NCBI GenBank assembly: GCA_964354255.1
Contig: CAYGYX010000001.1
Location: 38,474-102,473, forward strand
Direction: 5' to 3'
From: an uncultured Acidimicrobiia bacterium
Lineage (GTDB): Bacteria > Actinomycetota > Acidimicrobiia > Spongiisociales > UBA11373
DNA: 64,000 nt
Both the position numbers and the translations under genes were made by a program. Positions within the stretch are counted from its first letter, which is position 1; each line of letters begins with the position of its first letter. Positions 4,432-19,410 of the stretch are shown one piece after another. The notes below the pieces were generated by a model that was given only the letters and a program-made list of their open reading frames with translations, had not been told where the DNA came from and searched no databases.

Positions 4432-5193
4432 TCAGCCGAGGCGCTCCCTGAGCCAGGCGATATCGGCCGCCTGGGAGCCGTCCTCGTCGGGTGTCTCCAC
4501 CACCACGGTCGTCGCCGCCGCCACCACCACCGCCACCAGCAGGTCCGGCGGGATCTCGCCCCGCCCGAGATTGGCATGGCGATCCCGGCGGCTGCCCGCC
4601 GGGTCGCGTGAGTCGTTGCAGTGCACCAGGTCGATGCCTCCGACGGCAGCCCGCACCCGTTCGACCACCGTCGCCAGGTCCTCCCCCGCCGCCCAGGCGT
4701 GGCAGGTGTCCAGGCACATCCCCACCCCAAGATGGCCGATCTCCTCCCACAGGCGTCCCAGGCGGGCGATCTCGCGCAGCACGGCGTTGCCCCCGCCGGC
4801 GGTGTTCTCCAGCAGGACGGGGACCCGGCGCTCGACCACCTCCAACGCCTTTCGCCAGCGCTCCACTCCGGTACCGGCCTCCTCATCGTCGCCCACGTGC
4901 CCGGCGTGCACCACCACCCCGGCTGCGCCGACTGCCGCCGCCGCCTCCAGGGTGTCGGCCAGGATGTTGCGGGAGGGGATGCGCACCCGGTTGTTGGGCG
5001 AGGCCACATTGATCAGATAGGGAGCGTGCACGTAGATGGGGAACGGCGCGGCCCGCAGTTCGGCCGCGTCGGGCCGGGGCGCCGGCTTGCGCCAGGACTG
5101 CGGATTGGACAGGAAGACCTGCACCACCTCGGCACCCACGGCGACGGCTTCCTCGAGCGGGTGCACGCTGGGGACGTGCGCGCCGATCAGCAT
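4432..5193 (-). CDS. nfo: deoxyribonuclease IV / endonuclease IV (AP endonuclease family 2)
   Basis: M95 of ORF 4432..5475: [37 protein letters not shown]...[13 protein letters not shown]...HAGHV...[11 protein letters not shown]...[14 protein letters not shown]...VHCNDSRD. This is the canonical endonuclease IV metal-ligand pattern. Confidence 0.85.
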
Positions 5194-5810: not shown

Positions 5811-6346
5811 GGCCCCACCCCCAGGTCGGCCGGGAGGAGCAGCGCCCGGTAGGGGATCCCCCGTTCGGCGAAGGCTTCGGCCACCCGGCCGCCGCTGCGG
5901 TCCACCAGGATGACCCCCTGCACGACGGTGATGCCCTCGGCGGCCAGCACGTCCACTGCCTCGATAAGCGACCCGCCGGTGGTGGTCGTGTCCTCCACCA
6001 CCGCCACCCGGTCCTCCGGGCCCACCGGCCCCACCAGCCTCCCCCCGAGTCCGTGCTCCTTGGCCCGGGCGCGGATCGAGAAGGCCTTCAGGGAACGCCC
6101 CTCTCCGGCAGCGACCACCGCGGTAGCCACCGCGACGGGGTCGGCGCCCTGGGTGGGGCCGCCCAGTGCCGTCACCGCGGGATCGAGGACACCGAGCACC
6201 GCGGCCGCCACCAGTCGCGCTCCCTCCCCCGAGAAGGTGGTACTCCGCGCATCCACATACCAGGCTGAGCGGGCCCCCGAACGGAGCGTGAACTCGCCGG
6301 TGCGCAGCGCGTGGCGGCGGAGGTGGTCGGCCAGAGCCTGGTGCAC
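5807..6346 (-). CDS. pyrE: orotate phosphoribosyltransferase
   Basis: 179 aa: [32 protein letters not shown]...[37 protein letters not shown]. The PRPP-binding motif [11 protein letters not shown] is present. Confidence 0.9.
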
Positions 6347-6385
6347 GCGCCCACTGTAAGCACCACGCGACCGCGCGACCGCCGG

Positions 6386-7216
6386 TCAGCGCCCGAAGCG
6401 CCGGTTGCGCCGCGTGAAGTCGCGCAGGGCCCGCAGGAAGTCCACCCGGCGGAAGGCCGGCCAGTAGACGTCCACAAAGGAGTACTCGGCGTAGGCCGCC
6501 TGCCAGAGCAGGAAACCGGAGAGGCGCGATTCCCCGCTGGTGCGGATCACCAGGTCGGGGTCGGGGAGGTCGGCCGTGTAGAGGTGGCCGGCCAGGGAGT
6601 CGGCGTCGATGTGCTCGGGTAGCTCGGCGGCGGCCAGGCCCTCGGCGGCCAGCTTCCCCACCAGGTCCTTCACCGCGTCCACGATCTCCTGCCGGCCCCC
6701 GTAGGCCAGGGCGATGGTGAGGCGGCGATCACCGTCGGGAGACCGCTCCGCCAGACGACGGGCGGCGTTGCGCAGCCCGTCGGGCAGGAGGTCGATGCTG
6801 CCGATCGTCCTGATGCGCAGCCCCGCCGCCGCCGGCTCCCCCGGGAGGCGCTCGAAGAGGTCGGTGAGCACCTCGAAGTAGGGCAGCAGCTCGCCGCTCG
6901 GGCGGGACAGGTTCTCCTTGGAGAGCAGCCAGCAGGTGACCGCCGGGACCTCAAGCTGGCGGCACCACCCGAGGAACTCCACGAACTTGTCCATCCCGGC
7001 CCGGTAGGAGGTGGTGTAGTCGGGCAAGCCCGCCGCCCGAGCGTAGCGCCGGTGGCCGTCGTGGATGACCCCGACGTGGCGGGGCAGCTGGGACCGGTCC
7101 AGGGAGCGGAGCAGCCGCTCCTCATAGAGCCGGTAGAGGGGCCGGCGGAACGTATCGCCGAGGTTCAATTGACTCCTTGCGGGAACCACCGTGATGTTAC
7201 GGCCGACGCGGTGCAC
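6386..7216 (-). CDS. uppS: isoprenyl transferase (cis-prenyl diphosphate synthase, UppS family)
   Basis: LPRHVGVIHDGHRRYA...AYGGRQEIVDAVKDLV...LVIRTSGESRLSGFLLWQAAYAEYSFVDVYWPAFRRVDFLRALRDF matches the UPP synthase family signature. The N-terminal 40 aa are an extension, so the exact start is uncertain. Confidence 0.8.
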   Translation of the reverse strand: MHRVGRNITVVPARSQLNLGDTFRRPLYRLYEERLLRSLDRSQLPRHVGVIHDGHRRYARAAGLPDYTTSYRAGMDKFVEFLGWCRQLEVPAVTCWLLSKENLSRPSGELLPYFEVLTDLFERLPGEPAAAGLRIRTIGSIDLLPDGLRNAARRLAERSPDGDRRLTIALAYGGRQEIVDAVKDLVGKLAAEGLAAAELPEHIDADSLAGHLYTADLPDPDLVIRTSGESRLSGFLLWQAAYAEYSFVDVYWPAFRRVDFLRALRDFTRRNRRFGR

Positions 7217-7304: not shown

Positions 7305-8777
7305 ATGCCTACCCTCCTGCCCGCCATGCGTGCTCTGGTCACCGGGGCCACCGGTTACATCGGCGGCCGTCTCGTCCCCCGCCTGCTCGAGGCCGGCCAC
7401 CAGGTGCGCTGCCTCACCCGCCGCCCTCCTCGCCTCGACTCCGTCCCCTGGCGCCCCCGGGTGGAGGTGGTAGCCGGTGACGCGCTCGACCCCGCCTCCC
7501 TGACGAGCGCTCTGGCCGGCTGCGAGGCGGCCTACTACCTGGTGCATGCCATGGCCGAGGGCCCGGGCTTCGACGAACGGGATCGCCTCGCCGCCGCCAA
7601 CTTCCGCGAGGCGGCCGACGCCGCCGGCCTGCGTCGGGTGGTCTACCTGGGAGGCCTGGCCCCCGAGGGTGTCCGCCTCTCCAAGCACCTCGCCAGCCGC
7701 CAGGAGGTCGGCCGGGTCCTCGCCGCCGGGGTCACCCCGGTCACGGAGTTCCGGGCGGCGGTCATCATCGGCTCAGGTTCGCTCTCCTTCGAGATGCTGC
7801 GCTACCTGACCGAGGTACTCCCGGTGATGACCACCCCGCGCTGGGTGCGCAGCCGCTGCCAGCCCATCGCGGTGAGCGACGTGCTCGACCTGCTCGTCCG
7901 GGCGCTGGATGACCCAGAAACGGTGGACCGGGTGCTGGAGATCGGCGGCCCCGACGTCCTCACCTACCAGGACATGATGCGCGCCTACGCCGCCGAGGTG
8001 GGCCTGCGCCGGCTGATCATCCCCGTCCCCTTCCTGAGCCCCGGTCTCTCGTCACTCTGGGTAGGGCTGGTCACCCCGCTCCCGCCCCGGGTGGCCCGGC
8101 CCCTGGTCGAGAGCCTGCGCCACGAGGCGGTGGTTCGCGACCCCACCGCCCAGCGCCTCTTCCCCTACGAGCCCCTGCCCTTTCGCGAGGCCCTGCGCCG
8201 GGCGCTCGACACCCCGCCCGACGGGATCGCCACCCGCTGGTCCGACGCCGACCCGGCCCCCGCCCACACCGCCCCCGGGGATCCCGAGTGGAGCGGGGGC
8301 ACCATCTACACCGACCGGCGGGTGATCCCCACCGACGCCGCTCCCCACCACGTCTTCTGGGCCTTCAGCCGCATCGGCGGCGACGTGGGCTACTACGGGC
8401 TCAACTGGGCCTGGAAGCTGCGCGGCCTGCTCGACCGCCTCATAGGGGGGGTCGGCCTGCGCCGGGGTCGACGCCACCCCGAGCATCTGCGGGAAGGAGA
8501 GGCCCTCGACTTCTGGCGAGTGGACCGCATCACCCCCGGGCGACTCCTCCGCCTGCGAGCGGAGATGCGCCTGCCCGGGGAGGCCTTCCTGCAGTGGGTG
8601 ATCGAGCCGGTGGACGGCGGCTCCGACCTCGTGCAGACCGCCATCTTCCGGCCCCGGGGGCTCCTGGGGCGCCTCTACTGGTATGCCATGGCCCCCTTCC
8701 ACTCGTATATCTTCCCCCGGATGGCCTGGAAGATGGCCGCCGCCGCCGAGGAGAGGGGCTACTCGTGCCCGACGTGA
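7305..8777 (+). CDS. NAD(P)-binding SDR-family oxidoreductase with C-terminal DUF2867-like domain
   Basis: M39 of ORF 7191..8777 (alternative M46 at 7326). MRALVTGATGYIGGRLVPRLLEAGHQVRCLTRRP is a Rossmann GxxGxxG motif. The long C-terminal domain (VFWAFSRIGGDVGYYGLNWAWKLRGLLDRLIGG...) is typical of DUF2867. Confidence 0.75.
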   Translation: MPTLLPAMRALVTGATGYIGGRLVPRLLEAGHQVRCLTRRPPRLDSVPWRPRVEVVAGDALDPASLTSALAGCEAAYYLVHAMAEGPGFDERDRLAAANFREAADAAGLRRVVYLGGLAPEGVRLSKHLASRQEVGRVLAAGVTPVTEFRAAVIIGSGSLSFEMLRYLTEVLPVMTTPRWVRSRCQPIAVSDVLDLLVRALDDPETVDRVLEIGGPDVLTYQDMMRAYAAEVGLRRLIIPVPFLSPGLSSLWVGLVTPLPPRVARPLVESLRHEAVVRDPTAQRLFPYEPLPFREALRRALDTPPDGIATRWSDADPAPAHTAPGDPEWSGGTIYTDRRVIPTDAAPHHVFWAFSRIGGDVGYYGLNWAWKLRGLLDRLIGGVGLRRGRRHPEHLREGEALDFWRVDRITPGRLLRLRAEMRLPGEAFLQWVIEPVDGGSDLVQTAIFRPRGLLGRLYWYAMAPFHSYIFPRMAWKMAAAAEERGYSCPT

Positions 8778-9589
8778 GCGCCGCCGGGGTGGGCAACACC
8801 CTGGCGCTGGCCGCCGCCGTCGTCACCGGGGCGATGGTGCTGCTGTGGCTGGTGAGCCTGGCCGCCCGCGACGCCTCGATCGTCGACATCTTCTGGGGAC
8901 CGGGCTTCGTGCTGGTCGCCTGGACGGTCTTCGCCTGGGTCACCGCCCACGACCTGCCCGACGGCGGTGGGGCCCGCCGCCTGCTCCTCGCCGCCCTGGT
9001 CACCGTCTGGGGCCTGCGCCTGGGGATCTACCTCGGGAGGCGCAACCTGGGCAAGGGGGAGGACTACCGCTACGTGGCGATGCGGGAGAAGGCCCGGGGG
9101 CGGTTCTGGATCATCAGCCTCGGCAAGGTGTTCCTCCTGCAGGGCCTGCTCATGTGGGTGGTCTCCCTCCCCCTCCAGGGCGGCCAACTGCCCTCCACGC
9201 CCGACGGGCTCGGGCCTCTGGCCCTCGCCGGCGCCGCGGTCTGGGCCATCGGGCTCTTCTTCGAGTCGTTGGGCGACTGGCAACTGGCCCGCTTCAAGTC
9301 CGACCCGGCCAACAGAGGCCGCGTGATGGACCGGGGCCTGTGGCGATACACCCGCCACCCCAACTACTTCGGCGACTTCCTGGTGTGGTGGGGCCTCTAC
9401 CTGGTGGCTCTCGAGGGCCACGGGACCTGGTGGACGGTGGCCGGCCCGCTGCTCATGTCGTTCCTGCTATTGCGGGTGAGCGGGGTGGCCATGCTCGAGA
9501 AGACCATCGCCACCCGCCGCCCGGGCTACGAGCAGTACGTGCGCCGCACCAGCGCCTTCTTCCCCCTGCCGCCCCGGCGGGCGAGTTGA
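8774..9589 (+). CDS. DUF1295 family membrane protein (steroid 5-alpha-reductase / ICMT-like fold)
   Basis: The GTG start overlaps the upstream stop (GTGA). Multi-TM protein with the signature RGLWRYTRHPNYFGDFLVWWGLYLVAL, which identifies the DUF1295/ICMT-like superfamily. Confidence 0.75.
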   Translation: MSAAGVGNTLALAAAVVTGAMVLLWLVSLAARDASIVDIFWGPGFVLVAWTVFAWVTAHDLPDGGGARRLLLAALVTVWGLRLGIYLGRRNLGKGEDYRYVAMREKARGRFWIISLGKVFLLQGLLMWVVSLPLQGGQLPSTPDGLGPLALAGAAVWAIGLFFESLGDWQLARFKSDPANRGRVMDRGLWRYTRHPNYFGDFLVWWGLYLVALEGHGTWWTVAGPLLMSFLLLRVSGVAMLEKTIATRRPGYEQYVRRTSAFFPLPPRRAS

Positions 9590-9660
9590 GCGGCGAGCGG
9601 GCCGGCTCCGCCGGCGCTGCGGCCGGGCCATCCCACCGGACGGCTAGGTTCTCGCCGGAC

Positions 9661-10332
9661 ATGGACCCCCTCGATCGCCTCCGCCTGGGCAAGATGACCA
9701 ACCCGGTGCGCGGCTTCCTCCACGGGGCCGCCGCCGTGCTCTCCGTGGTCGGGGCCACGTTCCTGACGGTGCTCGCCGGCGGCGGCGTGGCGAACCGGGT
9801 CTCGTTGCTGGTGTTCGGGGTCAGCCTGGTGAGCCTCTACACCGTCTCCAGCCTCTACCACTCGATCCCCTGGGGGCCGCTCTGGAAGGCCCGCATGCGG
9901 CGCCTTGACCACACGATGATCTACGTGCTGGTCGCCGGCACTTTCACCCCCATCGCCTACATCGCGCTCGACGGCTGGCTCCGCTGGGCGACGCTTGGGA
10001 TGCAGTGGGCCATCGTGGCCTTCGGCGCCATCCAGAAAGCCCTCTTCCCCGGTCTGTCCCGCTCGTTGTCGGTAGCCCTGCAGACCATTCAGGGGTGGCT
10101 GGCAGTGCTCCTGCTCTGGCCCCTGGCCCGGACCCTTCCCTGGACGGCCCTCCTCATGCTCCTCATGGGTGGTCTGTTCTACACGGTGGGGATGGTGCTC
10201 CTGGTCACCAACCGGCCCCGGCTCTGGCCGCGGGTCTTCTCATACCACGAGGTATTTCACATCCTGGTAGTGGCCGGCTCGAGCCTCCACTTCGCGGTAG
10301 TGGCCCGCTACCTGGTCCACTTCGCCGGGTGA
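9661..10332 (+). CDS. hemolysin III family (PAQR/YqfA) 7-TM protein
   Basis: 223 aa: MDPLDRLRLGKMTNPVRGFLHGAAAVLSVVG...SLYHSIPW...RRLDHTMIYVLVAGTFTPIAY...HEVFHILVVAGSSLHF. The conserved HlyIII His motifs are present. Confidence 0.85.
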   Translation: MDPLDRLRLGKMTNPVRGFLHGAAAVLSVVGATFLTVLAGGGVANRVSLLVFGVSLVSLYTVSSLYHSIPWGPLWKARMRRLDHTMIYVLVAGTFTPIAYIALDGWLRWATLGMQWAIVAFGAIQKALFPGLSRSLSVALQTIQGWLAVLLLWPLARTLPWTALLMLLMGGLFYTVGMVLLVTNRPRLWPRVFSYHEVFHILVVAGSSLHFAVVARYLVHFAG

Positions 10333-10433: not shown

Positions 10434-10955
10434 CTAGTCGCCGTCGTCACCATCGCCGACGACCTCGAAAGCCACCTCTCCGTTGAGAACGAAGGCCCGC
10501 ACCCCGAAGTGGGAAGTCCCGCCGTCGAACTCGACGAGCACCTCGGCCGGATCCGCTTTCTCCACATCGACCGTGAACCCCGGCGCCGGCGTGGCACCGA
10601 CCAGGGCGAGGCGGCCTCCCGCCAGGCTCACCACCAGGGTTCCCCCGCCGACCACTCGCGCCACCACCGTGGGCTCGGCCCCGTCCGTGGTCGTCACCAC
10701 CCCGGTGGTGCTGCTCACGGCGACGGTCGTGGTGCTGTGAGACGAGGCCGCGGTGGTCGTCGTGCCCTCCGAGGTAGTCGACGGCCAAGAGGTAGTACTG
10801 GTCGCCAACGCGACCACCTGACTGGCAGACAAGGGGGCCATCGCCTCGAGCCCGGTCTGCTCGCCGGCCAGGCGGACCGCCGCCCAGGCGACCGTCGCCG
10901 TCACGGCGGTCGCGGCACACCAGGCACTGACGTATAGCACGGGCCGCGGCACGAC
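10434..10955 (-). CDS. secreted/membrane-anchored Ser/Thr-rich protein of unknown function
   Basis: N-terminal hydrophobic helix (LYVSAWCAATAVTATVAWAAV), then a long S/T-rich linker (TSTTSWPSTTSEGTTTTAASSHSTTTVAVSSTTGVVTTT), then a beta-rich C-domain. It is divergent from the response-regulator gene. The start is tentatively GTG. Confidence 0.45.
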   Translation of the reverse strand, partial: VVPRPVLYVSAWCAATAVTATVAWAAVRLAGEQTGLEAMAPLSASQVVALATSTTSWPSTTSEGTTTTAASSHSTTTVAVSSTTGVVTTTDGAEPTVVARVVGGGTLVVSLAGGRLALVGATPAPGFTVDVEKADPAEVLVEFDGGTSHFGVRAFVLNGEVAFEVVGDGDDGD

Positions 10956-11053
10956 ACAGATCGTCTCACAGAGCGCGCAACATGGCCTCAAGCCAGCCTC
11001 AAGTTGGCATCAAGGCCGCCACCCCTCCGGCCCGTCTGCCCTATCGTTTCACC

Positions 11054-11737
11054 ATGGCTTCCGTCGTCGTCATAGAGGACGACCTGCACATCCGCCAGGC
11101 GGTGGCTCGGGTGCTCGCCGACATGGGCCACGACGTCACCTCTTCCCCCACAGCCCTGGCCGGCCTGGAGTCGGTGGTTCAGCGGCATCCCGACCTGGTC
11201 CTCCTCGACCTGGGCCTGCCCGATCTAGACGGGTCCGAGCTTCTGAAGATGATCCGGGCGGTGAGCAAGGTGCCGATCATCGTCATCACCGCCCGCAGCG
11301 AAGATGCCGAAGTGGTGCGCACGCTCGATTCCGGGGCCGACGACTACCTGGTCAAGCCCTTCACCACCGCCCAACTCGGAGCCCGGGTGCGGGCGGTGCT
11401 CCGCCGGATCGGGGGTTCCCCAACCCGGGATCTGGTGCGCGTGGGCACCCTGGAGATCGATCCCCCGGCGCGCACCGCCACCCTCGACGGCGCGCTCCTC
11501 GACCTGAGCCCCAAGGAGTTCGACCTGCTGTTGTACCTGGCCCGGCGGACCGGAGAAGTGGTCACCAAACGCGAGATGCTCGCCGAGGTCTGGCGGGAGC
11601 CCTATGGGGGAAGCGAACGCACTGTGGACGTCCACCTCTCCTGGCTGCGGCGCAAGATGGGGGAGAGCGCCGCCGCGCCGCGCTACCTCCGCACCCATTT
11701 CGGCGTCGGCATCCGCCTGGTCGATCCCCGCTCGTGA
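11054..11737 (+). CDS. two-component response regulator, OmpR/PhoB family
   Basis: M25 of ORF 10982..11737: MASVVVIEDDLHIRQAVARVLADMGHDV...LVLLDLGLPDLDG...KVPIIVITARSED...LVKPF, a receiver domain, followed by a winged-helix (EFDLLLYLARRTGEVVTKREMLAEVW). Confidence 0.9.
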   Translation: MASVVVIEDDLHIRQAVARVLADMGHDVTSSPTALAGLESVVQRHPDLVLLDLGLPDLDGSELLKMIRAVSKVPIIVITARSEDAEVVRTLDSGADDYLVKPFTTAQLGARVRAVLRRIGGSPTRDLVRVGTLEIDPPARTATLDGALLDLSPKEFDLLLYLARRTGEVVTKREMLAEVWREPYGGSERTVDVHLSWLRRKMGESAAAPRYLRTHFGVGIRLVDPRS

Positions 11738-13008
11738 GACGGCGCCTGTCCTTGCTGGTGCTCGCGGTCACCTCAATGGTCGTCGTGGCCTTCGTGGTGC
11801 CGCTCGGGCTCCTGGTGCGCCGGCAGGCCGAGAGCCGGGGATTGGCCGAAGCCCAGCGCACCGCCCAAGCGGTCGCCTCCGGCCTCGCCGTAGCCTCCTA
11901 CCTGTCCCCGGACCTGCCGGGCTCGGTCGTGGAGTTGGTCCTCGCGGTTTCCGGGGAAGGGGCCACCTCCGTCTTCCTCCCCGACGGGAGCGTGACCGGC
12001 CCACCGACGGAAGCCTCGCCGGCGGTGACGCAGGCGCGGGCCGGGCGGGCCCTGAGCGCCCATGCTGCCGACGGGGTGGAGATCCTCGTCCCGGTGACGG
12101 GCAGCACCGGGACCCTCGTCGTGCGCACCTGGGTATCCGACGCCGAACTGCGCCATGGGGTGATCGCCGCCTGGCTGGTCCTCGCCGTCCTCGGAGTGCT
12201 GCTGGTGATCGCCGCCGTCACCCTGGCCGACCGCCTGGGGGCCGCGCTGGTCCGGCCCGTGGCCGCCCTGGCCGGCGCCGCCCGGCGCATGGCCTCCGGT
12301 GACCTCCAGGCCCGCGTCGCTCCGGCCGGGCCGCCCGAGATCGCCGACGCCGGACAGGCCTTCAACCACCTCGCCGGACGCCTCGACGACCTCCTGCTGG
12401 CCGAGCGGGAATCCCTGGCCGACTTGTCACACCGGCTGCGCACCCCCCTCACCGCGCTGCGCCTCCAGGCAGAGGCCCTGCCGGGCGCCGAGGGCCTGCT
12501 CGAGGACGTCGACCGCCTGGGGAGCCAGGTCGACCAGTTGATCACCGAGGCCCGGCGCCGCTCACCCGCCGCCGGACCGCGCCACGCCGATCTCTGTGAG
12601 GTCGCCCGGCGGCGCGCCGCCTTCTGGCAGGTACTCGCAGAAGAGCAGGGACGCTCAGCAATCGTCGCTGTGGCTCCGGGCCCCATGTGGTTGGCGCTCA
12701 CCGAGGACGAGCTGGGGGCGGCCCTCGACACGCTGTTGGAGAACGTGTTCACCCACACCCCAGCCGGGACCGCCTACGAAGTCTCGGTCTCCACCCCCGT
12801 GCCGGGCGCGGCGCTGCTCCTGGTCGAGGACCATGGGCCGGGGTTCCCGCACCACGAAGTGGCCGAGCGCGGCAGCAGCCAGACCGGGTCCAGTGGCCTG
12901 GGGCTCGATATCGCCCGCGGCGCGGCGCGGCGCACCGGCGGCGACCTCACCATCGGGGAGGGGCCGGGGGGCGGAGCCCGCGTCGAGGTTCGTTTCGGGC
13001 GGCTCTAG
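11734..13008 (+). CDS. sensor histidine kinase (2 TM, HAMP, HisKA, HATPase_c)
   Basis: The GTG start overlaps the RR stop (GTGA). Contains the H-box SHRLRTPLTALRL and the ATP lid GSSGLGLDIARGAARRTGGDLTIGEGPGGGARVEVRF. Confidence 0.9.
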   Translation: MRRRLSLLVLAVTSMVVVAFVVPLGLLVRRQAESRGLAEAQRTAQAVASGLAVASYLSPDLPGSVVELVLAVSGEGATSVFLPDGSVTGPPTEASPAVTQARAGRALSAHAADGVEILVPVTGSTGTLVVRTWVSDAELRHGVIAAWLVLAVLGVLLVIAAVTLADRLGAALVRPVAALAGAARRMASGDLQARVAPAGPPEIADAGQAFNHLAGRLDDLLLAERESLADLSHRLRTPLTALRLQAEALPGAEGLLEDVDRLGSQVDQLITEARRRSPAAGPRHADLCEVARRRAAFWQVLAEEQGRSAIVAVAPGPMWLALTEDELGAALDTLLENVFTHTPAGTAYEVSVSTPVPGAALLLVEDHGPGFPHHEVAERGSSQTGSSGLGLDIARGAARRTGGDLTIGEGPGGGARVEVRFGRL

Positions 13009-13546
13009 CCGCGCTCGGCGCCGCCTTCCCTCCGGCAAGGAGGAATCGCGCCACCACCAGCACGACCACGGCGGCGACGGTCCCGGCGTAAAGGCTCATG
13101 ACTGCCGGGTTCGAGGTGTCGCTCCCCGCCAGCACACCGTGGAGCGTCGCGGAGGCATACGCCCCGAAGGCACCGAAGTGCAGGACGCGCCAGGCCTTCT
13201 GCCCGATGAAGCGCCGCACGTAGAAGGACCCTCCCACCACCACCAGGCCCCAGGCCGCAACCACGCCCAGCGCCACAGCCTCGGGACGCCAGCTCGAAGA
13301 CCCCGGGATGAGCAGCTCGCGCCACCCGAAGCTCAGGTACTTGTCAGCGGCGAGGAAGGCGAGGTGGGTTCCGGTGGCGGCCAGCGCGCCCAGCGAGAGG
13401 CCTTCGTGGGCGACGGTGAGCGCCCGCGGCTGCACCGAGCGTCCCAGCAGCCGGCTGGCGAGCAGCAGGCCCCAGATGGTTGCGGCCGCCACCAGCCCGT
13501 ACGCCACCAAGCCCGACGCTCGGATGATCAGCCAGGTCGTAGTCAT
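12947..13546 (-). CDS. ferric-reductase-like transmembrane domain protein (PF01794-like)
   Basis: M167 of ORF 12947..14044. MTTTWLIIRASGLVAYGLVAAATIWGLLLASRLLG...HEGLSLGALAATGTHLAFL...LHFGAFGAYASATLHGVL shows multi-TM helices with conserved His. The ATG overlaps the apbE stop (ATGA), and a GGAGGTG SD is present. The 3' end overlaps the convergent HK gene by ~62 nt. Confidence 0.6.
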   Translation of the reverse strand: MTTTWLIIRASGLVAYGLVAAATIWGLLLASRLLGRSVQPRALTVAHEGLSLGALAATGTHLAFLAADKYLSFGWRELLIPGSSSWRPEAVALGVVAAWGLVVVGGSFYVRRFIGQKAWRVLHFGAFGAYASATLHGVLAGSDTSNPAVMSLYAGTVAAVVVLVVARFLLAGGKAAPSAARAARNEPRRGLRPPAPPRW

Positions 13547-14394
13547 GCCGCCACCTCCGTGCCGGCCGTGGCGAAGACGCTCCCGTCGTGCCAGATGGCC
13601 ACGGCGCCGCGCAGCCAGGCCTGGCGGCCGGCCCAGGCGAGGCCGTCCGACCCGAGGAGCAGGATCGCCTTGGCCGCAGCTTCCGCCTCCAGGGCGGTGG
13701 CCGCCACTGCGCTGGCGCTCACCGCCGGGGACTCCACCGGGGCCATGATCCGGGGGTCGATGATGTGGTTGGCCTCCGCCGCTCCCACCTTCCAGCGCCG
13801 GAGCAGGACAGAACTGGTCGCCAGCGCCCCCACCCCGAGGTGGACTCGCGCGGCCACCTCGGCCTCGCCGCCCAGGATCTCGACGGTGGTGCGCCCATCC
13901 GACGAGCGCACATCCCCGCCCGCCGAGACCACGACTGCCAGGCCCTGCTCCACGGCGCGGTCGCAGGTCCAGCCCTTGGCGATGCCGCCCAGGTCGAGGT
14001 ACGTGTCCGGCGGCCTGCGCAGCCGGCCGCCGGACAGGGACCACGGGGCCGCTGCCGGCAGCGGCCCCGGTGGCAGGCGCCGGTCACAGACTGCGGAGAA
14101 GGTGCCGTCGTAGCCCCACTCCGCCACCGCCCGGCCCACACCCGCATCCACCAGCCCACCGGTAAGGGTGCGCGCGGTGTCTGCAGCCCCGACTACCTCC
14201 GCCAGGAGTGGGGGCAAGGCCACCTCGACGTCCAGATCGGCGTTCGCCCGGCTCAGGTCGCTCTGGGCCCGGAACCGCGAGCAGCAAGCCTCAACCTGCT
14301 CGAAGAGGGCGCGCACCGCAGCCAGGCCCACCTCGGTCTCACCCACGGCCACCACCCCAGTCCCCATGGCGCGGAAACGCTGCAGCAGCATCAC
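13543..14394 (-). CDS. apbE: FAD:protein FMN transferase (flavin transferase ApbE)
   Basis: 283 aa: LLQRFRAMGTGVVAVGE...YLDLGGIAKGWTCDRAVE...AVVVSAGGDVRSSD...ALATSSVLLRRWKVGAAEANHIIDPR, which matches the ApbE family signature. The start overlaps the upstream gene stop. Confidence 0.85.
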   Translation of the reverse strand: MMLLQRFRAMGTGVVAVGETEVGLAAVRALFEQVEACCSRFRAQSDLSRANADLDVEVALPPLLAEVVGAADTARTLTGGLVDAGVGRAVAEWGYDGTFSAVCDRRLPPGPLPAAAPWSLSGGRLRRPPDTYLDLGGIAKGWTCDRAVEQGLAVVVSAGGDVRSSDGRTTVEILGGEAEVAARVHLGVGALATSSVLLRRWKVGAAEANHIIDPRIMAPVESPAVSASAVAATALEAEAAAKAILLLGSDGLAWAGRQAWLRGAVAIWHDGSVFATAGTEVAA

Positions 14395-14768
14395 GACCCC
14401 GAGCTCGTCACCGTCGGTGGCGCCGGCACCACCTGCGGTGCGGCCGCGGGCGGAGCCGCCGACACGACCTCCGGGGCCGCGGGAGCGACCGGCTGCGTGC
14501 TCGGCAACGTCACCTCAGCCCCGGAGGACCGGCCGAGGCGGAGCACCAGCAGCCCGCCCTCAGGCATGGCCGGCAAGGCGGCCCTGACATCGGCCGACTG
14601 CTCAACCGCGGCCGGGGACACCGGGTCCGGGATGGCCGCGGGGGTGGTGGCCGCTCCTCCGACACCCGAGACCCGGGCGATGACGGCCGCCACCCAGGCA
14701 GTGGCCATCGCCGTCCAGCCCCCGATGCGAACCACCCGGACCGGCGGAAAGCGGCCGACGCGGCTCAT
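14391..14768 (-). CDS. small single-TM protein with Pro/Ala-rich extracytoplasmic tail, unknown function
   Basis: M132 of ORF 14391..15161: MSRVGRFPPVRVVRIGGWTAMATAWVAAVIARVSGV...SSGAEVTLPSTQPVAPAAPEVVSAAPPAAAPQVVPAPP. The ATG overlaps the upstream stop (ATGA) and its stop overlaps the apbE start. The call is supported mainly by this chain of translational coupling. Confidence 0.45.
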   Translation of the reverse strand: MSRVGRFPPVRVVRIGGWTAMATAWVAAVIARVSGVGGAATTPAAIPDPVSPAAVEQSADVRAALPAMPEGGLLVLRLGRSSGAEVTLPSTQPVAPAAPEVVSAAPPAAAPQVVPAPPTVTSSGS

Positions 14769-15130
14769 CGGGCCCCTCCCGGGACGGGGGGTGCCACGGA
14801 CTCTGCGGGCACCTGGAGTACCACCCCGCGCGTCGCCAGCACCCGCGCCACCTCTGCGGGGATGCCCGCTTCTCCCGGGACGATGACTTCCAGGTAGCCC
14901 CCGGCGAGCAAGGTGCCCAGCACGGTCCCCCCCGCGCCATCCGCCGAGGAGGCTGCGGGGGTCACCGCGCCGGACGCCGAACCCGGCACAGTCTCCGAAG
15001 AGGTGGCGGCAGGCTGCGTGGTGGCCGCCGGGGCAGCGCCGCCGGGCGGAGAGGCGGTGGCGAAGGCTCCCAGGCCCAGGCCCGCCAAGGCCAGCCCGGC
15101 CGCCAGCGAGGCCCACTCTCGCGCGGCCAT
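14765..15130 (-). CDS. small Sec-secreted protein, unknown function
   Basis: 121 aa. MAAREWASLAAGLALAGLGLGAFATA is a signal peptide, followed by a T/S/A-rich linker and a C-terminal segment TVLGTLLAGGYLEVIVPGEAGIPAEVARVLATRGVVLQV. The ATG overlaps the upstream stop by 1 nt (TGATG). Confidence 0.45.
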   Translation of the reverse strand: MAAREWASLAAGLALAGLGLGAFATASPPGGAAPAATTQPAATSSETVPGSASGAVTPAASSADGAGGTVLGTLLAGGYLEVIVPGEAGIPAEVARVLATRGVVLQVPAESVAPPVPGGAR

Positions 15131-15639
15131 CAGCCCTCCACCTCCCCCGCGCCGGATTCATCCTCGTACCAGTCGTCCTCGTACTCGTCCCCGCCCACCC
15201 GGTCGTCGTCGCGCCGGTCGTCGTCGTAGGCGACCCCGGAGGCCGAGAGTTCGGCCCCGGGGGCAGGTTCCGCCGACGGCCCGGAGGCGATGACGACCGC
15301 CGGCGCAGGCCCGTCCAGGGACAGGCCGGCTGCCGCGCAGACCGGGCGCAGCGCGTCGAGGGCTGCCTGCTGCAGTGCGGTCAAGGAGCCCGCCGTCTCC
15401 CCGGCCACCAGCCCCCGACCTTCGGTACCACACGCCACGAGGAGATCGGCGAACGCCGTGTCGGCCGCGCCCTGCCCCGTGGGCAGAGCGGCCGGCGCGG
15501 CCACGGCGGCAGCCAGCGTGGTAGGTGAAGCCACCGCCCCGTCGGTGTTGAATACCCCCGACGCCGCCAGGGCGAGGATCGGGCCCGAGACCAACCCGAT
15601 GGCCAGAGCCACCAGGAGGCTCCTGCGCTTATGGTCCAT
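15130..15639 (-). CDS. secreted protein with acidic C-terminal tail, unknown function
   Basis: M11 of ORF 15130..15669 with an AGAGGAA SD. MDHKRRSLLVALAIGLVSGPILALAASG is a signal peptide. The C-terminus YDDDRRDDDRVGGDEYEDDWYEDESGAGEVEG is strongly acidic. It is the first gene of the ApbE cassette. Confidence 0.5.
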   Translation of the reverse strand: MDHKRRSLLVALAIGLVSGPILALAASGVFNTDGAVASPTTLAAAVAAPAALPTGQGAADTAFADLLVACGTEGRGLVAGETAGSLTALQQAALDALRPVCAAAGLSLDGPAPAVVIASGPSAEPAPGAELSASGVAYDDDRRDDDRVGGDEYEDDWYEDESGAGEVEG

Positions 15640-15772
15640 GTCGTTCCTCTCTGCTCGATGAACCAGCACAGGCTGCCGGAAGACCCCTCAAGAGGGCCTC
15701 AGGACGGGGACAAGAAGGCTGCATCTCCGGGCCTTCCGGTAAGACCTTTCCCCCATCCGGACATAGGCTGGT

Positions 15773-16303
15773 GTGGAGTGGACCATGACCGTCGTCGGCG
15801 CCGCTGACCGGGCGGCCTCACCCGAGGCCCGCTTCAGCACCCTCTTCGCCCGCCACTACCCGGCGGTGTTCGGCTACGCCGTCCGCCGGGTGGGCCGCGA
15901 CGAGGCGGGCGACGCCACCGCCGAGGTCTTCACCGTGGCGTGGCGGCGGCTGGGGCGGGTTCCCGCAGAGCCGGAGACCCTGCCCTGGCTCTACGCAGTG
16001 GCCCGCAAGGTCGTGGCCAACCAGGAGCGGGCGGCCCGCCGCCGCTGGCGCCTGGAGGCCAGGGCCGCGGCCTCCCCGGCCGGCACGGTCGAGGCTCCCG
16101 GCACCACCGGCCTCGATGTCGAGGCTGCCCTGCTCCGCCTGGGACAGGGCGACCGGGAGTTGCTGCGCCTCGCCGCCTGGGAGGAGCTACAGCCCGGCGA
16201 GATCGGCACCGTCCTGGGCTGCTCGGCCAACGCCGCCGCCGTCCGCCTCCACCGCGCCCGGCAGCGCCTCGCCGGGGAACTGCAATCGGAAGGCCGGCCA
16301 TGA
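15773..16303 (+). CDS. ECF (sigma-70 family) RNA polymerase sigma factor
   Basis: Region 2 (FSTLFARHYPAVFGYAVRRVGRDEAGDATAEVFTVAWRRL) and region 4 (LQPGEIGTVLGCSANAAAVRLHRARQRL) are recognisable. The start is GTG at 15773 or ATG at 15785. Confidence 0.85.
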   Translation: MEWTMTVVGAADRAASPEARFSTLFARHYPAVFGYAVRRVGRDEAGDATAEVFTVAWRRLGRVPAEPETLPWLYAVARKVVANQERAARRRWRLEARAAASPAGTVEAPGTTGLDVEAALLRLGQGDRELLRLAAWEELQPGEIGTVLGCSANAAAVRLHRARQRLAGELQSEGRP

Positions 16304-17754
16304 ACCGCGATCCCTTCGACACCCTGCGCTCCCGCAACCCGGCGCCCCCGGAGAGCCTGCCCGAGGCCCCCATGGCGGTGGCCAGCCGGATCACCGCCGG
16401 GCACCCCTCGCTGCGCCGCGGCCTGGCCATCGCCGCCGCCGCCGCCTCAGTGGTGCTGGTCGCCGGGGGTGGATGGCTGCTGTGGAGCCAGACCGGTGGA
16501 CGGCAGACGGTGGTGGCCCCGCCGACGACGACCTCGACCACTGCCGGCGAGACCACGACCACCGCTCCTGTGATAGTGGAGGAGGCCCCCACCGTGGTCG
16601 TGTACTTCCTCAAGGACGGCAAGTTGGTGCCGGTGGCGCGAGACCTCAGCGTGCTCAACGTGCGGCCGCTGCCGGACCTGGGACCGCTCACCGTCGAACT
16701 GCTCCTGTACGGGCCGGGAGCCTGGGACGCGGCACCTCTACCCGACCCGGTGGCCGCCGCCGAGGCCGAACTGACCACCTCCATCCCGGAGGGCACCGAA
16801 CTGCTCGGGCTGAGCGTCTCACCGGGCGTCGTGACGGTGGATCTGGCCGGACTCCAGAGCGAATCCCGGCTCGCCCCCCCGGAGGCCCTGGCCCAGATCG
16901 TGTTCACCCTTACCACGCTCTACGGGGTCGAGGACATCAGCTTCCTGGTCGAGGGGGTGCCCCACGCGGTGGTGGCCGAGACCCTCGCCCTCGTGCCCAG
17001 CGCCAGCCCCCCAGCCGGGGGCACGATGGTGGACCCGGTGACGCGTCTCACCTTCGAGGAGTTCATGTCGCCGGTCATGATCGAGAAGCCGGCCCTGGGC
17101 GGCACGCTCCAGAGCCCAGGCGTGGTCGCCGGTTCGGTGTCCTTCTTCGCGACCGGGGTGCGCCTGGTGCTCACCGACGACGACGGGAGCGTCCTCTGGG
17201 AGTCTCTCCCTGAGATCAGATGCGGCGCCCCCCTTGCTCCGGCATGTCGCGGAGTGGACGACTGGAGCACTTTCGAGGCTGACGTTCCGGCCGGCCTGGT
17301 GGACTACGGGCGGTGGGGCACGATCTCGGCGTTTCTCCTTTCGGACCGCTTCCTGCCGTATGCCCCGCACTCCCAGCCCGTCTGGTTGGTGCCCTTCGTG
17401 CCGTTCACGGAGGAGCCCGACATCCCCGAGGCGACCAGGACCACCGTGGGCTACGGCCTGGGCGACCTGCGCCCCTTCCCCGACGACCTCCTCACCGGAT
17501 GCGCTGCCGACACCGTGCGCGACCCGGCCGCCTTCGAGGCCGCCCTGGCGAACGGGCCGATCTCCATGGGCGACCTGTGCGCCGTCGTAGGGGTCCCCGA
17601 CTACGAGACGGGCAGCGGCCTGATGATCCCGGTCTACGACCTGGCCGACGGCAGCCGGCTCTACCTGGGCTACGCCGGGCTCGCGGCCGAAGACCTGATG
17701 TACGCCAACCTGGTGAGCCCGGATGGCAGGGTGCGGGACCTGCTGGGGGGGTAG
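16300..17754 (+). CDS. membrane-anchored GerMN-domain protein, putative anti-sigma / sigma-associated factor
   Basis: The ATG overlaps the sigma stop (ATGA). A short cytoplasmic N-terminus is followed by a TM (LAIAAAAASVVLVAGGGWLLW) and a T-rich linker. A GerMN-like segment (VVVYFLKDGKLVPVARDL...VELLLYGPGAWDAAPLPDP...GVVTVDLAG) and a ~250-aa C-terminal domain follow. Confidence 0.7.
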   Translation: MNRDPFDTLRSRNPAPPESLPEAPMAVASRITAGHPSLRRGLAIAAAAASVVLVAGGGWLLWSQTGGRQTVVAPPTTTSTTAGETTTTAPVIVEEAPTVVVYFLKDGKLVPVARDLSVLNVRPLPDLGPLTVELLLYGPGAWDAAPLPDPVAAAEAELTTSIPEGTELLGLSVSPGVVTVDLAGLQSESRLAPPEALAQIVFTLTTLYGVEDISFLVEGVPHAVVAETLALVPSASPPAGGTMVDPVTRLTFEEFMSPVMIEKPALGGTLQSPGVVAGSVSFFATGVRLVLTDDDGSVLWESLPEIRCGAPLAPACRGVDDWSTFEADVPAGLVDYGRWGTISAFLLSDRFLPYAPHSQPVWLVPFVPFTEEPDIPEATRTTVGYGLGDLRPFPDDLLTGCAADTVRDPAAFEAALANGPISMGDLCAVVGVPDYETGSGLMIPVYDLADGSRLYLGYAGLAAEDLMYANLVSPDGRVRDLLGG

Positions 17755-17985: not shown

Positions 17986-19410
17986 TCACCCCCCGCCCTC
18001 TCCCGGCAGGCCGGGAGCGGGAGCGATCCCCCGCCCCTCGGCCCACTCCCGTACCAATCGGAACGCCTCCTCCTCCGAGTAGGGGCCCTCGTCCAGACGG
18101 TGCTCCAGCAACAGGTCCATCACCTCTCCCACCATGGGGCCCGGCGGGATGCCGAGCAAAGCCATCACGGCGTGGCCGTCGATGGGCGGGCGGATCGCGT
18201 CGAGTTCTTCCCGCTCCCGGAGGGTGGCGATGCGCTCCTCCAACTCGTCGATCCGCCGTTCCACCGCCCGGGCCTTCTTGGGGTCGCGAGTAGTCACATC
18301 GCAGCGCACCAACGTGTTCAGGCGCTCTAGGAGCGGCCCGGCATCCCGCACGTAGCGGCGCACGGCCCGATCGGTCCAGCCCATCTTCAACGTGTGGGGC
18401 CGCAGGTGCAGGTACACCAACCCGGCCACCTCATCGATGTCGGCGCGGGAGTAGCGCAGCTCCCGCATCCGCGCCCCGGTGATGCGGGCGCCAACCACCT
18501 CGTGGTGATGGAAGGCCACCCCGCCCGGGCCGAAGGAGCGGGTGGCCGGCTTCCCGACGTCGTGAAAGAGGGCGGCCAGGCGGAGGATCCGGTCCCGCGG
18601 GCAGCGCCCCACGACGGCGACGGTGTGGGCGAGCACATCCTTGTGCTGGTGGATGGGATCCTGCTGCAGGCGGAGGGCGGCGATCTCCGGGAGGAACTCC
18701 CCGGCCAGCCCGCTCTCCACCAGCCCCCACAACCCCTGCTCCACCTGCTCCCCCCCCAGCAGCTTGTCCAGCTCGTCACGAATGCGCTCGGCCGACACGA
18801 TCGCCAGCCGCTCACGCATCGCCCGCACCGCCGCCACCGCCTCGCCGTCGGCTCGAAAGCCCAGGCAGCTGACGAAGCGGAACAGGCGCAGCATGCGCAG
18901 CGGGTCGTCGGCGAAGGCGATGCCGGGATCGAGCGGGGTGCGCAGCAGGCCGGCCCCCAGGTCGGCCAGCCCCCCGAACGGATCGATGATCTCCGGGCCG
19001 GGTACGAGACGCAGGGCGGTGGCGTTCACCGTGAAATCGCGGCGCGACAGGTCGGTCTCCAGATCGTCGGCGAACTGCACGATCGGCTTGCGGCTGTCGT
19101 CCCGGTACACCTCGGCCCGGTAGGTCGTTATCTCGGCGCGCACCCCGTCCTTGCTGAGGCCGATGGTGCCGAAGGTCTCCCCCACCGTGTACACCTCATC
19201 GGCCCAACCGCCCACCAGGCGGCGCACCTCCGCGGGGCGGGCGTCGGTGGTGAAGTCGTGCTCCTCGTCGGCCCGGGCCCGCCCGAGGAGGGCGTCGCGC
19301 ACGCTGCCCCCGACCAGATAGAGATCCCGACCGCCCTCGGCGAAGAGCCGGGCGAGGGACATGGGCACTCCGTCGGCGCGCAGCAGAGGGTCGAGACGGG
19401 CCGGGATCAT
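17986..19410 (-). CDS. cca: CCA tRNA nucleotidyltransferase (poly-A polymerase head domain + HD domain)
   Basis: 474 aa: LYLVGGSVRDALLGR...DHDFTT...RRDFTVNA...RMLRLFRFVSCLGF and the HD motif LAALFHDVGKP. Confidence 0.85.
   Translation of the reverse strand: MIPARLDPLLRADGVPMSLARLFAEGGRDLYLVGGSVRDALLGRARADEEHDFTTDARPAEVRRLVGGWADEVYTVGETFGTIGLSKDGVRAEITTYRAEVYRDDSRKPIVQFADDLETDLSRRDFTVNATALRLVPGPEIIDPFGGLADLGAGLLRTPLDPGIAFADDPLRMLRLFRFVSCLGFRADGEAVAAVRAMRERLAIVSAERIRDELDKLLGGEQVEQGLWGLVESGLAGEFLPEIAALRLQQDPIHQHKDVLAHTVAVVGRCPRDRILRLAALFHDVGKPATRSFGPGGVAFHHHEVVGARITGARMRELRYSRADIDEVAGLVYLHLRPHTLKMGWTDRAVRRYVRDAGPLLERLNTLVRCDVTTRDPKKARAVERRIDELEERIATLREREELDAIRPPIDGHAVMALLGIPPGPMVGEVMDLLLEHRLDEGPYSEEEAFRLVREWAEGRGIAPAPGLPGEGGG

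Follow-up and report, generated by a model that had tools for sequence, protein, structure and literature searches.

Flavinylation by ApbE underlies much of the electron transfer that bacteria carry out outside the cytoplasm. Among the arrangements described so far, the MsrQ-like clusters combine apbE with a gene for an FMN_bind protein and a gene for a di-heme membrane protein of the PF01794 family, often with an NAD-binding domain (PMC8238504), and those with apbE are "broadly conserved in Actinobacteria" (Méheust et al. 2021, eLife, PMC8238504). The 2021 survey that defined them excluded ApbE proteins for which no signal peptide was predicted; even so, an orphan apbE, with no known substrate, was left in about 4% of genomes (PMC8238504). 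Here we analyze a five-gene cassette, g1-g2-g3-apbE-frd, on the minus strand of a 64,000-nt stretch of DNA from an uncultured Acidimicrobiia bacterium (contig CAYGYX010000001.1 of assembly GCA_964354255.1; hereafter the window). The survey would not have captured this cassette because its ApbE lacks a signal peptide. That the cassette is a conserved operon for electron transfer, built on an ApbE and a di-heme ferric-reductase-domain (FRD) cytochrome, is very likely on the sequence comparisons presented below. More tentatively, with a chance that we put a little short of even, we read it as an Acidimicrobiia-specific, divergent "MsrQ-like" module for flavinylation-linked electron transfer across the membrane, in which the C-terminal tail of g3 is the candidate substrate of ApbE.

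The cassette resembles the MsrQ-like clusters in that apbE adjoins a PF01794-type transmembrane (TM) protein with two-heme His pairs, in an actinobacterial lineage, and in its presumed role in transmembrane electron transfer. It differs from them in having neither an FMN_bind gene nor a signal peptide on ApbE, in a cytochrome with five predicted TM helices instead of six and no NAD-binding domain or NuoF partner, in the addition of three unclassified small proteins, and in a ferredoxin gene present in about half of the loci. The absence of an export signal is shared with the cytosolic ApbE of Klebsiella pneumoniae (PMC12052999). The substrate of that enzyme, however, is a soluble cytoplasmic NADH:fumarate reductase with a canonical FMN_bind domain and motif (PMC12052999), whereas the partners encoded in the cassette are all membrane proteins, save the optional ferredoxin, and have no canonical motif. 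A site on an unstructured terminal peptide, outside the FMN_bind fold, has precedents in the engineered flavin tag and in the extensions of FMN_red proteins (PMC12052999; Huang et al. 2024, PMC11334425). Both precedents retain [S/T]-G-A-[S/T], and in the tag the leading Asp is present as well; in contrast, g3 has S-[S/G]-G-S at its very C-terminus, with no Asp, usually no Ala, and no attached flavin-binding domain. Finally, the frd product shares with MsrQ (YedZ), NOX/SpNOX, STEAP and FRE two pairs of His residues 13-14 residues apart on alternate helices, but it is a stand-alone core of 199 aa that is one helix shorter and lacks both a dehydrogenase domain and an MsrP partner.

Results

The five genes form a translationally coupled operon

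The cassette extends from position 15639 to position 12947, and its genes are chained by stop/start overlaps of 1-4 nt (Table 1): TGATG at 15130, ATGA at 14765-14768, GTGA/TGATG at 14391-14394 and ATGA at 13543-13546. A chain of five coupled genes had been the core of the original prediction, made from the letters of this DNA, and all five open reading frames (ORFs) lie where it placed them. The window has about 73% G+C, a composition that gives long overlapping ORFs in every frame. G+C content was determined by codon position: GC3 lies between 0.84 and 0.89, GC2 is the lowest of the three values in each of the five genes, and the phase of highest G+C changes exactly at the four proposed junctions. 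The GC1, GC2 and GC3 values of the five genes are those usual for coding regions. Public gene calls on two independent Logan contigs encoding identical proteins give lengths of 169, 121, 125, 282 and 199 aa.

Table 1. Coordinates of the cassette, its neighbours and associated elements (window positions unless a locus is named).
Feature	Position	Strand	Remarks
g1	15130..15639	-	169 aa; signal peptide or anchor, two-Cys helical hairpin, poly-Asp/Glu(/His) tail; from ORF and GC3
g2	14765..15130	-	121 aa; single-pass, two short helices; from ORF and GC3
g3	14391..14768	-	125 aa; basic N-terminus, TM helix, C-terminal S-x-G-S; from alignment and homologues
Codons for g3 C-terminal Ser-Ser-Gly-Ser	14394..14405	-	directly before the TGA that overlaps the apbE start
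apbE	13543..14394	-	283 aa (282 if the start is the ATG at 14391); Pfam ApbE
frd	12947..13546	-	199 aa; ferric-reductase-domain (MsrQ-like) cytochrome b; four invariant His
Three direct repeats CTTGT-N6-CCTGA-N6-CTTGA	15688..15714	-	11-bp period; starts 75 nt 5' of the g1 ATG
OmpR-family response regulator	10982..11737	+	Response_reg 2.5e-26, Trans_reg_C 1.7e-21
Sensor histidine kinase	11734..13008	+	two TM helices, HAMP, HisKA, HATPase_c
Perfect CTTGA-N6-CTTGA-N6-CTTGA (10988-11014) with a fourth, degenerate unit	10977..11014	-	between the response regulator gene and the 10434-10991 gene
Thr/Ser-rich membrane or secreted protein	10434..10991	-	small conserved C-terminal domain (…PAPGF.V.V.K..P..V.V.F…)
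ECF sigma factor	15773-16303	+	Sigma70_r2/r4_2; divergent neighbour
GerMN-domain partner	16300-17754	+	Germane 1.7e-14
Ferredoxin gene (other loci)	L002 5640-5915; L004 5425-5700; L013 5524-5799; L020 6937-7212; L022-L024 ~8723-8999

The cassette recurs across the Acidimicrobiia

A species-level scan with ApbE as the query (one genome per species) yielded 17 loci, L001 to L017. Nearly all have titles naming Acidimicrobiia or Actinomycetota; three are metagenome bins labelled Acidobacteriota or Kiloniellales. Identity of their ApbE to the window copy ranges between 35% and 69%. As judged by tblastn and inspection of the ORFs, the order g1-g2-g3-apbE-frd is kept in 16 of the 17, and it is found again in further metagenome contigs reached through g1 or g3 homologues, for a total of more than 20 Acidimicrobiia/Actinomycetota loci. 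The 4-nt overlaps at the g2/g3, g3/apbE and apbE/frd junctions were seen in every locus examined, g3 always lying directly 5' of apbE. Agreement among ORFs, junctions, GC3 and this recurrence bears out the coupled arrangement.

Homologues at the same position were found for all three small proteins. Where the source names them, they are called "hypothetical protein" and come from Acidimicrobiia or Actinomycetota. Because such conserved homologues exist in the databases, the small ORFs are genuine genes, and the cassette is a unit specific to the clade; by sequence, g1, g2 and g3 are clade-restricted protein families. The three small secreted or TM proteins proposed originally are thus conserved families with N-terminal signal or anchor helices. 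A literature search on ApbE in Acidimicrobiia returned nothing.

In the most distant locus, L017 (35% identity), the cassette is reduced. It begins with a TM protein whose tail is acidic and a g3-like protein that has an internal T-S-S-G-G and a Gly-rich end (6309-6644 and 6508-6948); next come ApbE and a cytochrome extended by 170 aa at its C-terminus. A response regulator/histidine kinase pair lies upstream.

The C-terminus of g3 is under selection as a peptide

g3 has 175 homologues of 104-140 aa, with no Pfam domain and no fusions. They share a basic N-terminus, a weakly hydrophobic helix, the motif P-x-x-P-x-x-G-L-x-V-x-R (present in 114 of 120 homologues) and a segment rich in Pro, Ala, Ser and Thr. 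The 35-63 residues between the GLxVxR part of the motif and the C-terminus are of low complexity. At the C-terminus itself, 119 of 120 homologues read S-[SGARN]-[GA]-S, with SSGS in 96. Codon usage in the tail was tabulated at 23 loci. The Ser at position -3 is encoded by TCG (8 loci), AGC (8), AGT (3) or TCC (2), and all four GGN codons are used for the Gly. The C-terminus of g2, which ends at an equivalent overlapping ATGA junction, is not conserved. This synonymous switching of Ser and Gly codons, together with the variable g2 C-terminus, argues that selection acts on the tail peptide of g3 and not merely on the overlap. The C-terminus of ApbE is also conserved; it carries GGAGG for frd.

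The tail thus presents a conserved Ser in a context resembling [S/T]-x-[G/A]-[S/T], co-encoded with apbE. Seven-residue flavin tags work best at protein termini, and their motif tolerates substitutions (PMC12052999); in natural FMN_red substrates the flavin is attached to a C-terminal extension that lacks structure (PMC11334425). By analogy with these two cases, it is plausible on biochemical grounds that an unstructured terminal peptide becomes flavinylated. That the g3 tail is the site modified by ApbE is a possibility that we rate somewhat below even.

All three small proteins carry an N-terminal hydrophobic helix whose charge bias predicts an N-in/C-out orientation. In g3 the positive-inside bias points this way in 107 of 120 homologues, with a mean of 3.4 Lys plus Arg residues in the N-terminal flank and 0.7 in the C-terminal flank.

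In the g3 proteins of L004 and L006 (6591-7007) and of L003 (6630-7007), the linker contains further stretches of Ser and Gly (…GGGSSSGS…SSSGSSGGGSGS…) similar to the C-terminal motif; they may be extra sites of modification or simply sequence of low complexity.

A flavin acceptor of the usual kind is absent

FMN_bind gave no match at E<=1 in 138 orthologues of the small proteins (14 of g3, 111 of g1 and 13 of g2), and no Pfam family recurred consistently among them; the window copies, likewise free of FMN_bind, have no NCBIfam match either. Profile searches of the Protein Data Bank (PDB) with the three small proteins returned noise alone, with no NqrC, RnfG or PplA and no relative of solved structure. 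The canonical motif D-x-x-[S/T]-G-A-[S/T] is absent from the five proteins and from every six-frame ORF of at least 80 aa in the window, and no conserved [S/T]GA[S/T]-like motif occurs in the cytoplasmic loops of the cytochrome or in the ferredoxin.

These results agree with the original prediction in that none of the small proteins is recognizable as an FMN_bind protein. It had also pointed to the strings PGSASGAV and RSSGAEVT as weakly motif-like; both fall in unconserved, gap-rich alignment columns and have to be given up. The proposal that the small proteins include a novel flavinylation substrate stays viable in a changed form, the conserved candidate being the extreme C-terminus of g3 and not those strings.

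ApbE is a leaderless member of its family

The apbE product matches PF02424 with 115.4 bits (cut-off 25.6; E=4.4e-33) over profile positions 15-257 of 266. Against the NCBIfam equivalog PRK10461, which represents E. coli ApbE, it scores 40 bits for a cut-off of 498; as its sequence places it, the protein is a member of the family and not an orthologue of the E. coli lipoprotein. Its best solved relative is the ApbE of V. cholerae (6nxi, 5.8e-11), to which it aligns over most of its length. In this alignment H210, S194 and E238 correspond to H257, S241 and D285; His257, Ser241 and Asp285 have been named as the catalytic centre of the V. cholerae enzyme (PMC12052999). H210, the His of HIIDP, falls on the position at which 6nxi and the H257G entry 6nxj differ. 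Judged from the alignment, the catalytic His and Ser are kept and the third residue of the triad is changed conservatively, from Asp to Glu.

The metal-site motif A-D-x-x-x-T is altered. It reads A-E-A-x-A-K (E238, K242; window positions 13669-13683) throughout the clade and also in many leaderless ApbE outgroups at 35-45% identity. The Asp of the motif is D283 of E. coli, a ligand of metal site 1; the Thr of the E. coli motif is a second metal ligand. The occurrence of A-E-A-x-A-K in leaderless relatives suggests a distinct, probably cytoplasmic, ApbE subfamily. An exhaustive search returned just 24 cluster representatives at E<=1e-30, so that the ApbE clade of the cassette is, by this measure, compact; a leader is likewise missing from most of the ApbEs that come next in similarity (35-45% identity). 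In the window and in all 17 loci the ORF starts 8 residues before the AMGT strand.

Attempts to account for the missing leader gave no positive answer. A g3-ApbE fusion or programmed frameshift was rejected, no conserved slippery sequence being found before the junction. Tat hitch-hiking was rejected too, as the RR of the g1 signal in the window is not conserved among orthologues. Four "ApbE" representatives of 381-421 aa (P0259-P0261 and P0263) have Arg/Cys-rich N-terminal extensions that resemble out-of-frame miscalls. One further protein, P0289 (367 aa), is an in-frame fusion of a g3-like module (a TM helix and a "VIIVQRVVYRKV" strand motif) with an ApbE domain. It is a single sequence from the distant lineage of the L017 type, and may be a genuine fusion or an assembly frameshift or artefact (compare L017 6670-6831 and 6983-7879). 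If genuine, it would put the ApbE domain on the side of the membrane where the post-helix part of g3 lies.

The notion of an extracytoplasmic ApbE modifying secreted proteins does not follow from these data: ApbE is leaderless everywhere and the small proteins are predicted N-in/C-out. The original prediction had made no mention of the missing signal peptide.

The cytochrome is a minimal core, predicted to hold two hemes

In the window, the frd product has no PF01794 match even at E<=10, nor any match in Pfam or NCBIfam at all. PF01794 (Ferric_reduct) is nonetheless matched by 13 of 14 orthologues (best 8.3e-07), and public precomputed annotation marks the match as "weak". The pairing of ApbE with a ferric-reductase TM protein, as first proposed, therefore stands for ApbE, which is above the Pfam threshold, and for the frd family, but not for a direct domain match in the window copy. 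Four His residues are invariant in the 14 frd sequences: H47 and H61, 14 residues apart, and H123 and H136, 13 residues apart, on alternate helices. The two pairs would fit two stacked b-hemes carrying electrons across the membrane. The only PDB match of the family profile was a weak one to the bacterial NADPH oxidase SpNOX (8qq7, E=0.39) over the second His-bearing helix. From hydropathy, the alignment and the positions of basic loops, we infer five TM helices, and not six, in an N-out/C-in topology. The protein consists of the 199-aa membrane core alone, with no flavin or NAD domain.

One subclade has a cytochrome with a long cytoplasmic C-terminal extension (L009 7837-8682, L011 7837-8676, L014 from 7840 onward), which contains three repeats of K-P-R-I-P-P-E-L-L-E-R-S-x-A-R.

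The operon opens, in 11 of about 21 distinct loci, with a gene for a 91-aa single-cluster ferredoxin (Fer4_15/Fer4_13; examples in Table 1), which lies 1-2 nt 5' of g1. The ferredoxin has a Gly/Pro/His-rich insertion, FDGxxGxGHGPDG.

g1 and g2

The 299 homologues of g1 (149-244 aa) have no Pfam domain. The AlphaFold2 (AF2) model shows two helices, at 56-82 and 88-103, with pLDDT around 90: a confident but generic helical hairpin. Foldseek searches of the PDB with this model gave nothing below E=2.9 and returned generic hairpins alone. Of 120 homologues, 118 have exactly two Cys residues, with a spacing of 31 residues in 117 of these 118, and the hairpin is probably stapled by a disulfide. The last 40 residues contain on average 58% Asp plus Glu and 9% His.

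For g2, a search returned 18 homologues of 94-124 aa with no Pfam domain, and positional orthologues occur in all loci examined. Conservation is poor save for two short "l-P-x-x-V-x-x-V-L-x-x-x-G" helices. The AF2 model is also poor (pLDDT 51), with one TM helix and two short helices, and does not lend itself to a fold search.

A repeat element links the cassette to the adjacent two-component system

The cassette is flanked by genes for an OmpR-type response regulator, whose start is probably the ATG near 11054, and a sensor histidine kinase, whose 3' end overlaps frd convergently by 62 nt. Domains and coordinates confirm this flank as it was first described. Orthologues of the kinase adjoin the cassette in L001, L005, L013 and L017, and those of the response regulator in the last three; the two-component system is thus a neighbour of the cassette in these four loci.

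The repeat element upstream of g1 is seen elsewhere. Three CTTRR units at 11-bp spacing (allowing up to 2 mismatches) occur 43-86 nt 5' of the operon start, mostly at about 70-75 nt, in 16 of 21 loci; the background is 11 matches in about 600,000 positions. The perfect copy of the repeat next to the response regulator gene is the only match at up to 1 mismatch in the window, where 0.01 would be expected by chance. In L013 a copy (4852-4878, plus strand) lies 61 nt 5' of the orthologue of the 10434-10991 gene. Direct repeats one helical turn apart are the usual architecture of binding sites of the OmpR/PhoB family. On this sequence pattern the CTTGA repeats are probably the operator of the adjacent response regulator, and the shared upstream element ties the flanking two-component system to the cassette. 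Control of the operon by that system through the repeats is a reading that we moderately favour.

The product of the 10434-10991 gene has no Pfam or NCBIfam match. Its orthologues adjoin the response regulator gene in L005 (6167-6379) and L013 (4913-5434) by tblastn. Because of the repeat upstream and the conserved position beside the response regulator, the gene is probably co-regulated with the cassette.

A search for riboswitches upstream of the operon gave no Rfam match. A conserved GGCA...TG following the repeats was considered as a sigma-54 promoter and rejected, the spacing being wrong. On the other side of the cassette, the divergent ECF sigma gene and its GerMN-domain partner are correctly annotated in the original prediction. 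The pair is not conserved beside the cassette (no match adjoining it in L001-L017). The remaining neighbours are ordinary: a DUF1295/steroid-reductase-like membrane protein (8750-9589, plus strand), a haemolysin-III family protein (9640-10332, plus strand) and a CCA-adding/poly(A) polymerase-family enzyme with an HD domain (17986-19410, minus strand).

Discussion

A model for the cassette

We envisage that electrons would enter the cytochrome on the cytoplasmic side, from the small single-cluster ferredoxin where the operon encodes one, and would cross the membrane on the two hemes of the frd product. ApbE would attach FMN to the C-terminal Ser of the S-x-G-S-COOH sequence of g3, at the end of a flexible Pro/Ala-rich tether of about 45 residues, and this flavin would stand in for the FMN_bind domain as a relay beside the cytochrome. 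The poly-Asp/Glu/His tail of g1 may bind metal cations such as Fe(III) or Cu(II), metal ions being the likely electron acceptors, and g2 would be an accessory subunit. Expression would be set by the adjacent OmpR-type two-component system through the three CTTGA repeats about 75 nt upstream. Metal reduction as the output of the cassette is doubtful.

A bolder form of the model, which we regard as rather unlikely, would make g3 a new, minimal class of ApbE substrate: a domain-less, membrane-tethered peptide with FMN on its C-terminal Ser, at the tip of an arm of about 45 residues. It would be loaded in the cytoplasm by the leaderless ApbE and then either be threaded out through Sec with its flavin or act at the inner face, where it would supply the flavin that the ferredoxin-fed di-heme reductase lacks. 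If true, export of the flavin-loaded tail would spare a monoderm cell the export of FAD.

Several observations weigh against the model. The foremost is one of topology: the g3 tail is predicted to lie outside, whereas ApbE has no Sec, Tat or lipoprotein signal and no hydrophobic N-terminal segment in any of the 17 loci. Possible ways out of this conflict are that the tail is loaded before export, that the orientation of g3 is mispredicted (its helix is weakly hydrophobic, mean 1.38, and the topology prediction could be wrong), that the target of ApbE is a cytoplasmic one elsewhere, or that ApbE is a bound flavoprotein subunit. As to the site itself, neither the Asp nor the Ala of D-x-x-[S/T]-G-A-[S/T] is present in S-x-G-S, and part of the tail conservation (the GGN of Gly, AGC for Ser) could serve ribosome binding for apbE. 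In the enzyme, the Thr paired with the site-1 Asp in A-D-x-x-x-T is Lys. The window has no ferredoxin gene. Upstream of the operon there is no IdeR, Zur or Fur box, the best matches having 7-11 mismatches, and no metal transporter consistently adjoins the cassette in the loci examined. Finally, binding of flavin, heme and metal is in each case a prediction read from sequence.

Alternative explanations

The alternative that survives best, although we consider it somewhat unlikely, is that ApbE works in the cytoplasm alone, on a target elsewhere in the genome or on the cytoplasmic face (a loop or tail of the cytochrome, or an inward-facing g3). g1, g2 and perhaps g3 would then be structural or assembly subunits, and S-x-G-S would serve docking, processing or the initiation of apbE translation. 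The leaderless state of ApbE in all loci, and in most of the nearest outgroups, speaks for this explanation, as do the marginal hydrophobicity of the g3 helix, the existence of documented cytosolic ApbEs with cytosolic substrates (PMC12052999), and the P0289 fusion, which, if genuine, would place the ApbE domain on the same side as the post-helix part of g3. It meets difficulties in the charge bias that puts the g3 tail outside in the large majority of homologues and in the want of a conserved [S/T]GA[S/T]-like motif in the cytochrome loops or the ferredoxin, and it does not explain why g3 is so strictly coupled to apbE or why its terminal Ser residues are invariant.

It is quite improbable, in our view, that ApbE is not a transferase here but a subunit that holds FAD at the cytoplasmic face of the cytochrome in place of the absent FAD/NAD dehydrogenase domain, and through which ferredoxin or NAD(P)H would reduce the inner heme. 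We know of no ApbE for which a redox role has been described, and this counts against such a subunit. So does the retention of the His, the Ser and an acidic third triad residue, which points to preserved transferase chemistry. Some features would suit a flavoprotein subunit: an ATGA overlap joins apbE to frd in every locus, the cytochrome is without the NAD/FAD domain that MsrQ-like proteins frequently have (PMC8238504), the metal-site motif has Glu and Lys in place of Asp and Thr, and ApbE binds FAD with the isoalloxazine ring exposed (PMC12052999).

Still less credit can be given to the idea that this is an ordinary MsrQ-like system in which one of the small proteins is a very diverged FMN_bind, NqrC or RnfG domain missed by the profiles. 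A flavin acceptor is indeed expected in MsrQ-like clusters (PMC8238504), and g3 sits in the slot directly 5' of apbE. However, neither the FMN_bind search of the 138 orthologues nor the PDB profile searches gave any hint of such a domain, and the canonical flavinylation motif is absent; g1 is modelled as a helical hairpin and g2, at low confidence, as helical, and the low-complexity stretch after the g3 motif, variable in length, is unlike a globular fold. That the small ORFs are chance reading frames in high-GC DNA, as the many long overlapping ORFs in all frames of the region might suggest, is refuted by position-conserved homologues with family-specific invariant residues (299, 18 and 175 database matches for g1, g2 and g3), with which the GC3 phase and the concordant independent gene calls agree.

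Significance

The cassette is a concrete case of what the export-signal filter of the survey misses, and it is widespread in the Acidimicrobiia, a class known mostly from metagenomes. It offers a candidate for a new type of ApbE substrate, three unannotated protein families, a stand-alone FRD cytochrome linked to a ferredoxin, and a likely operator. If g3 is flavinylated, both the accepted motif and the need for a folded flavin-binding domain would require widening, and the site of flavin loading in monoderm bacteria would become directly testable.

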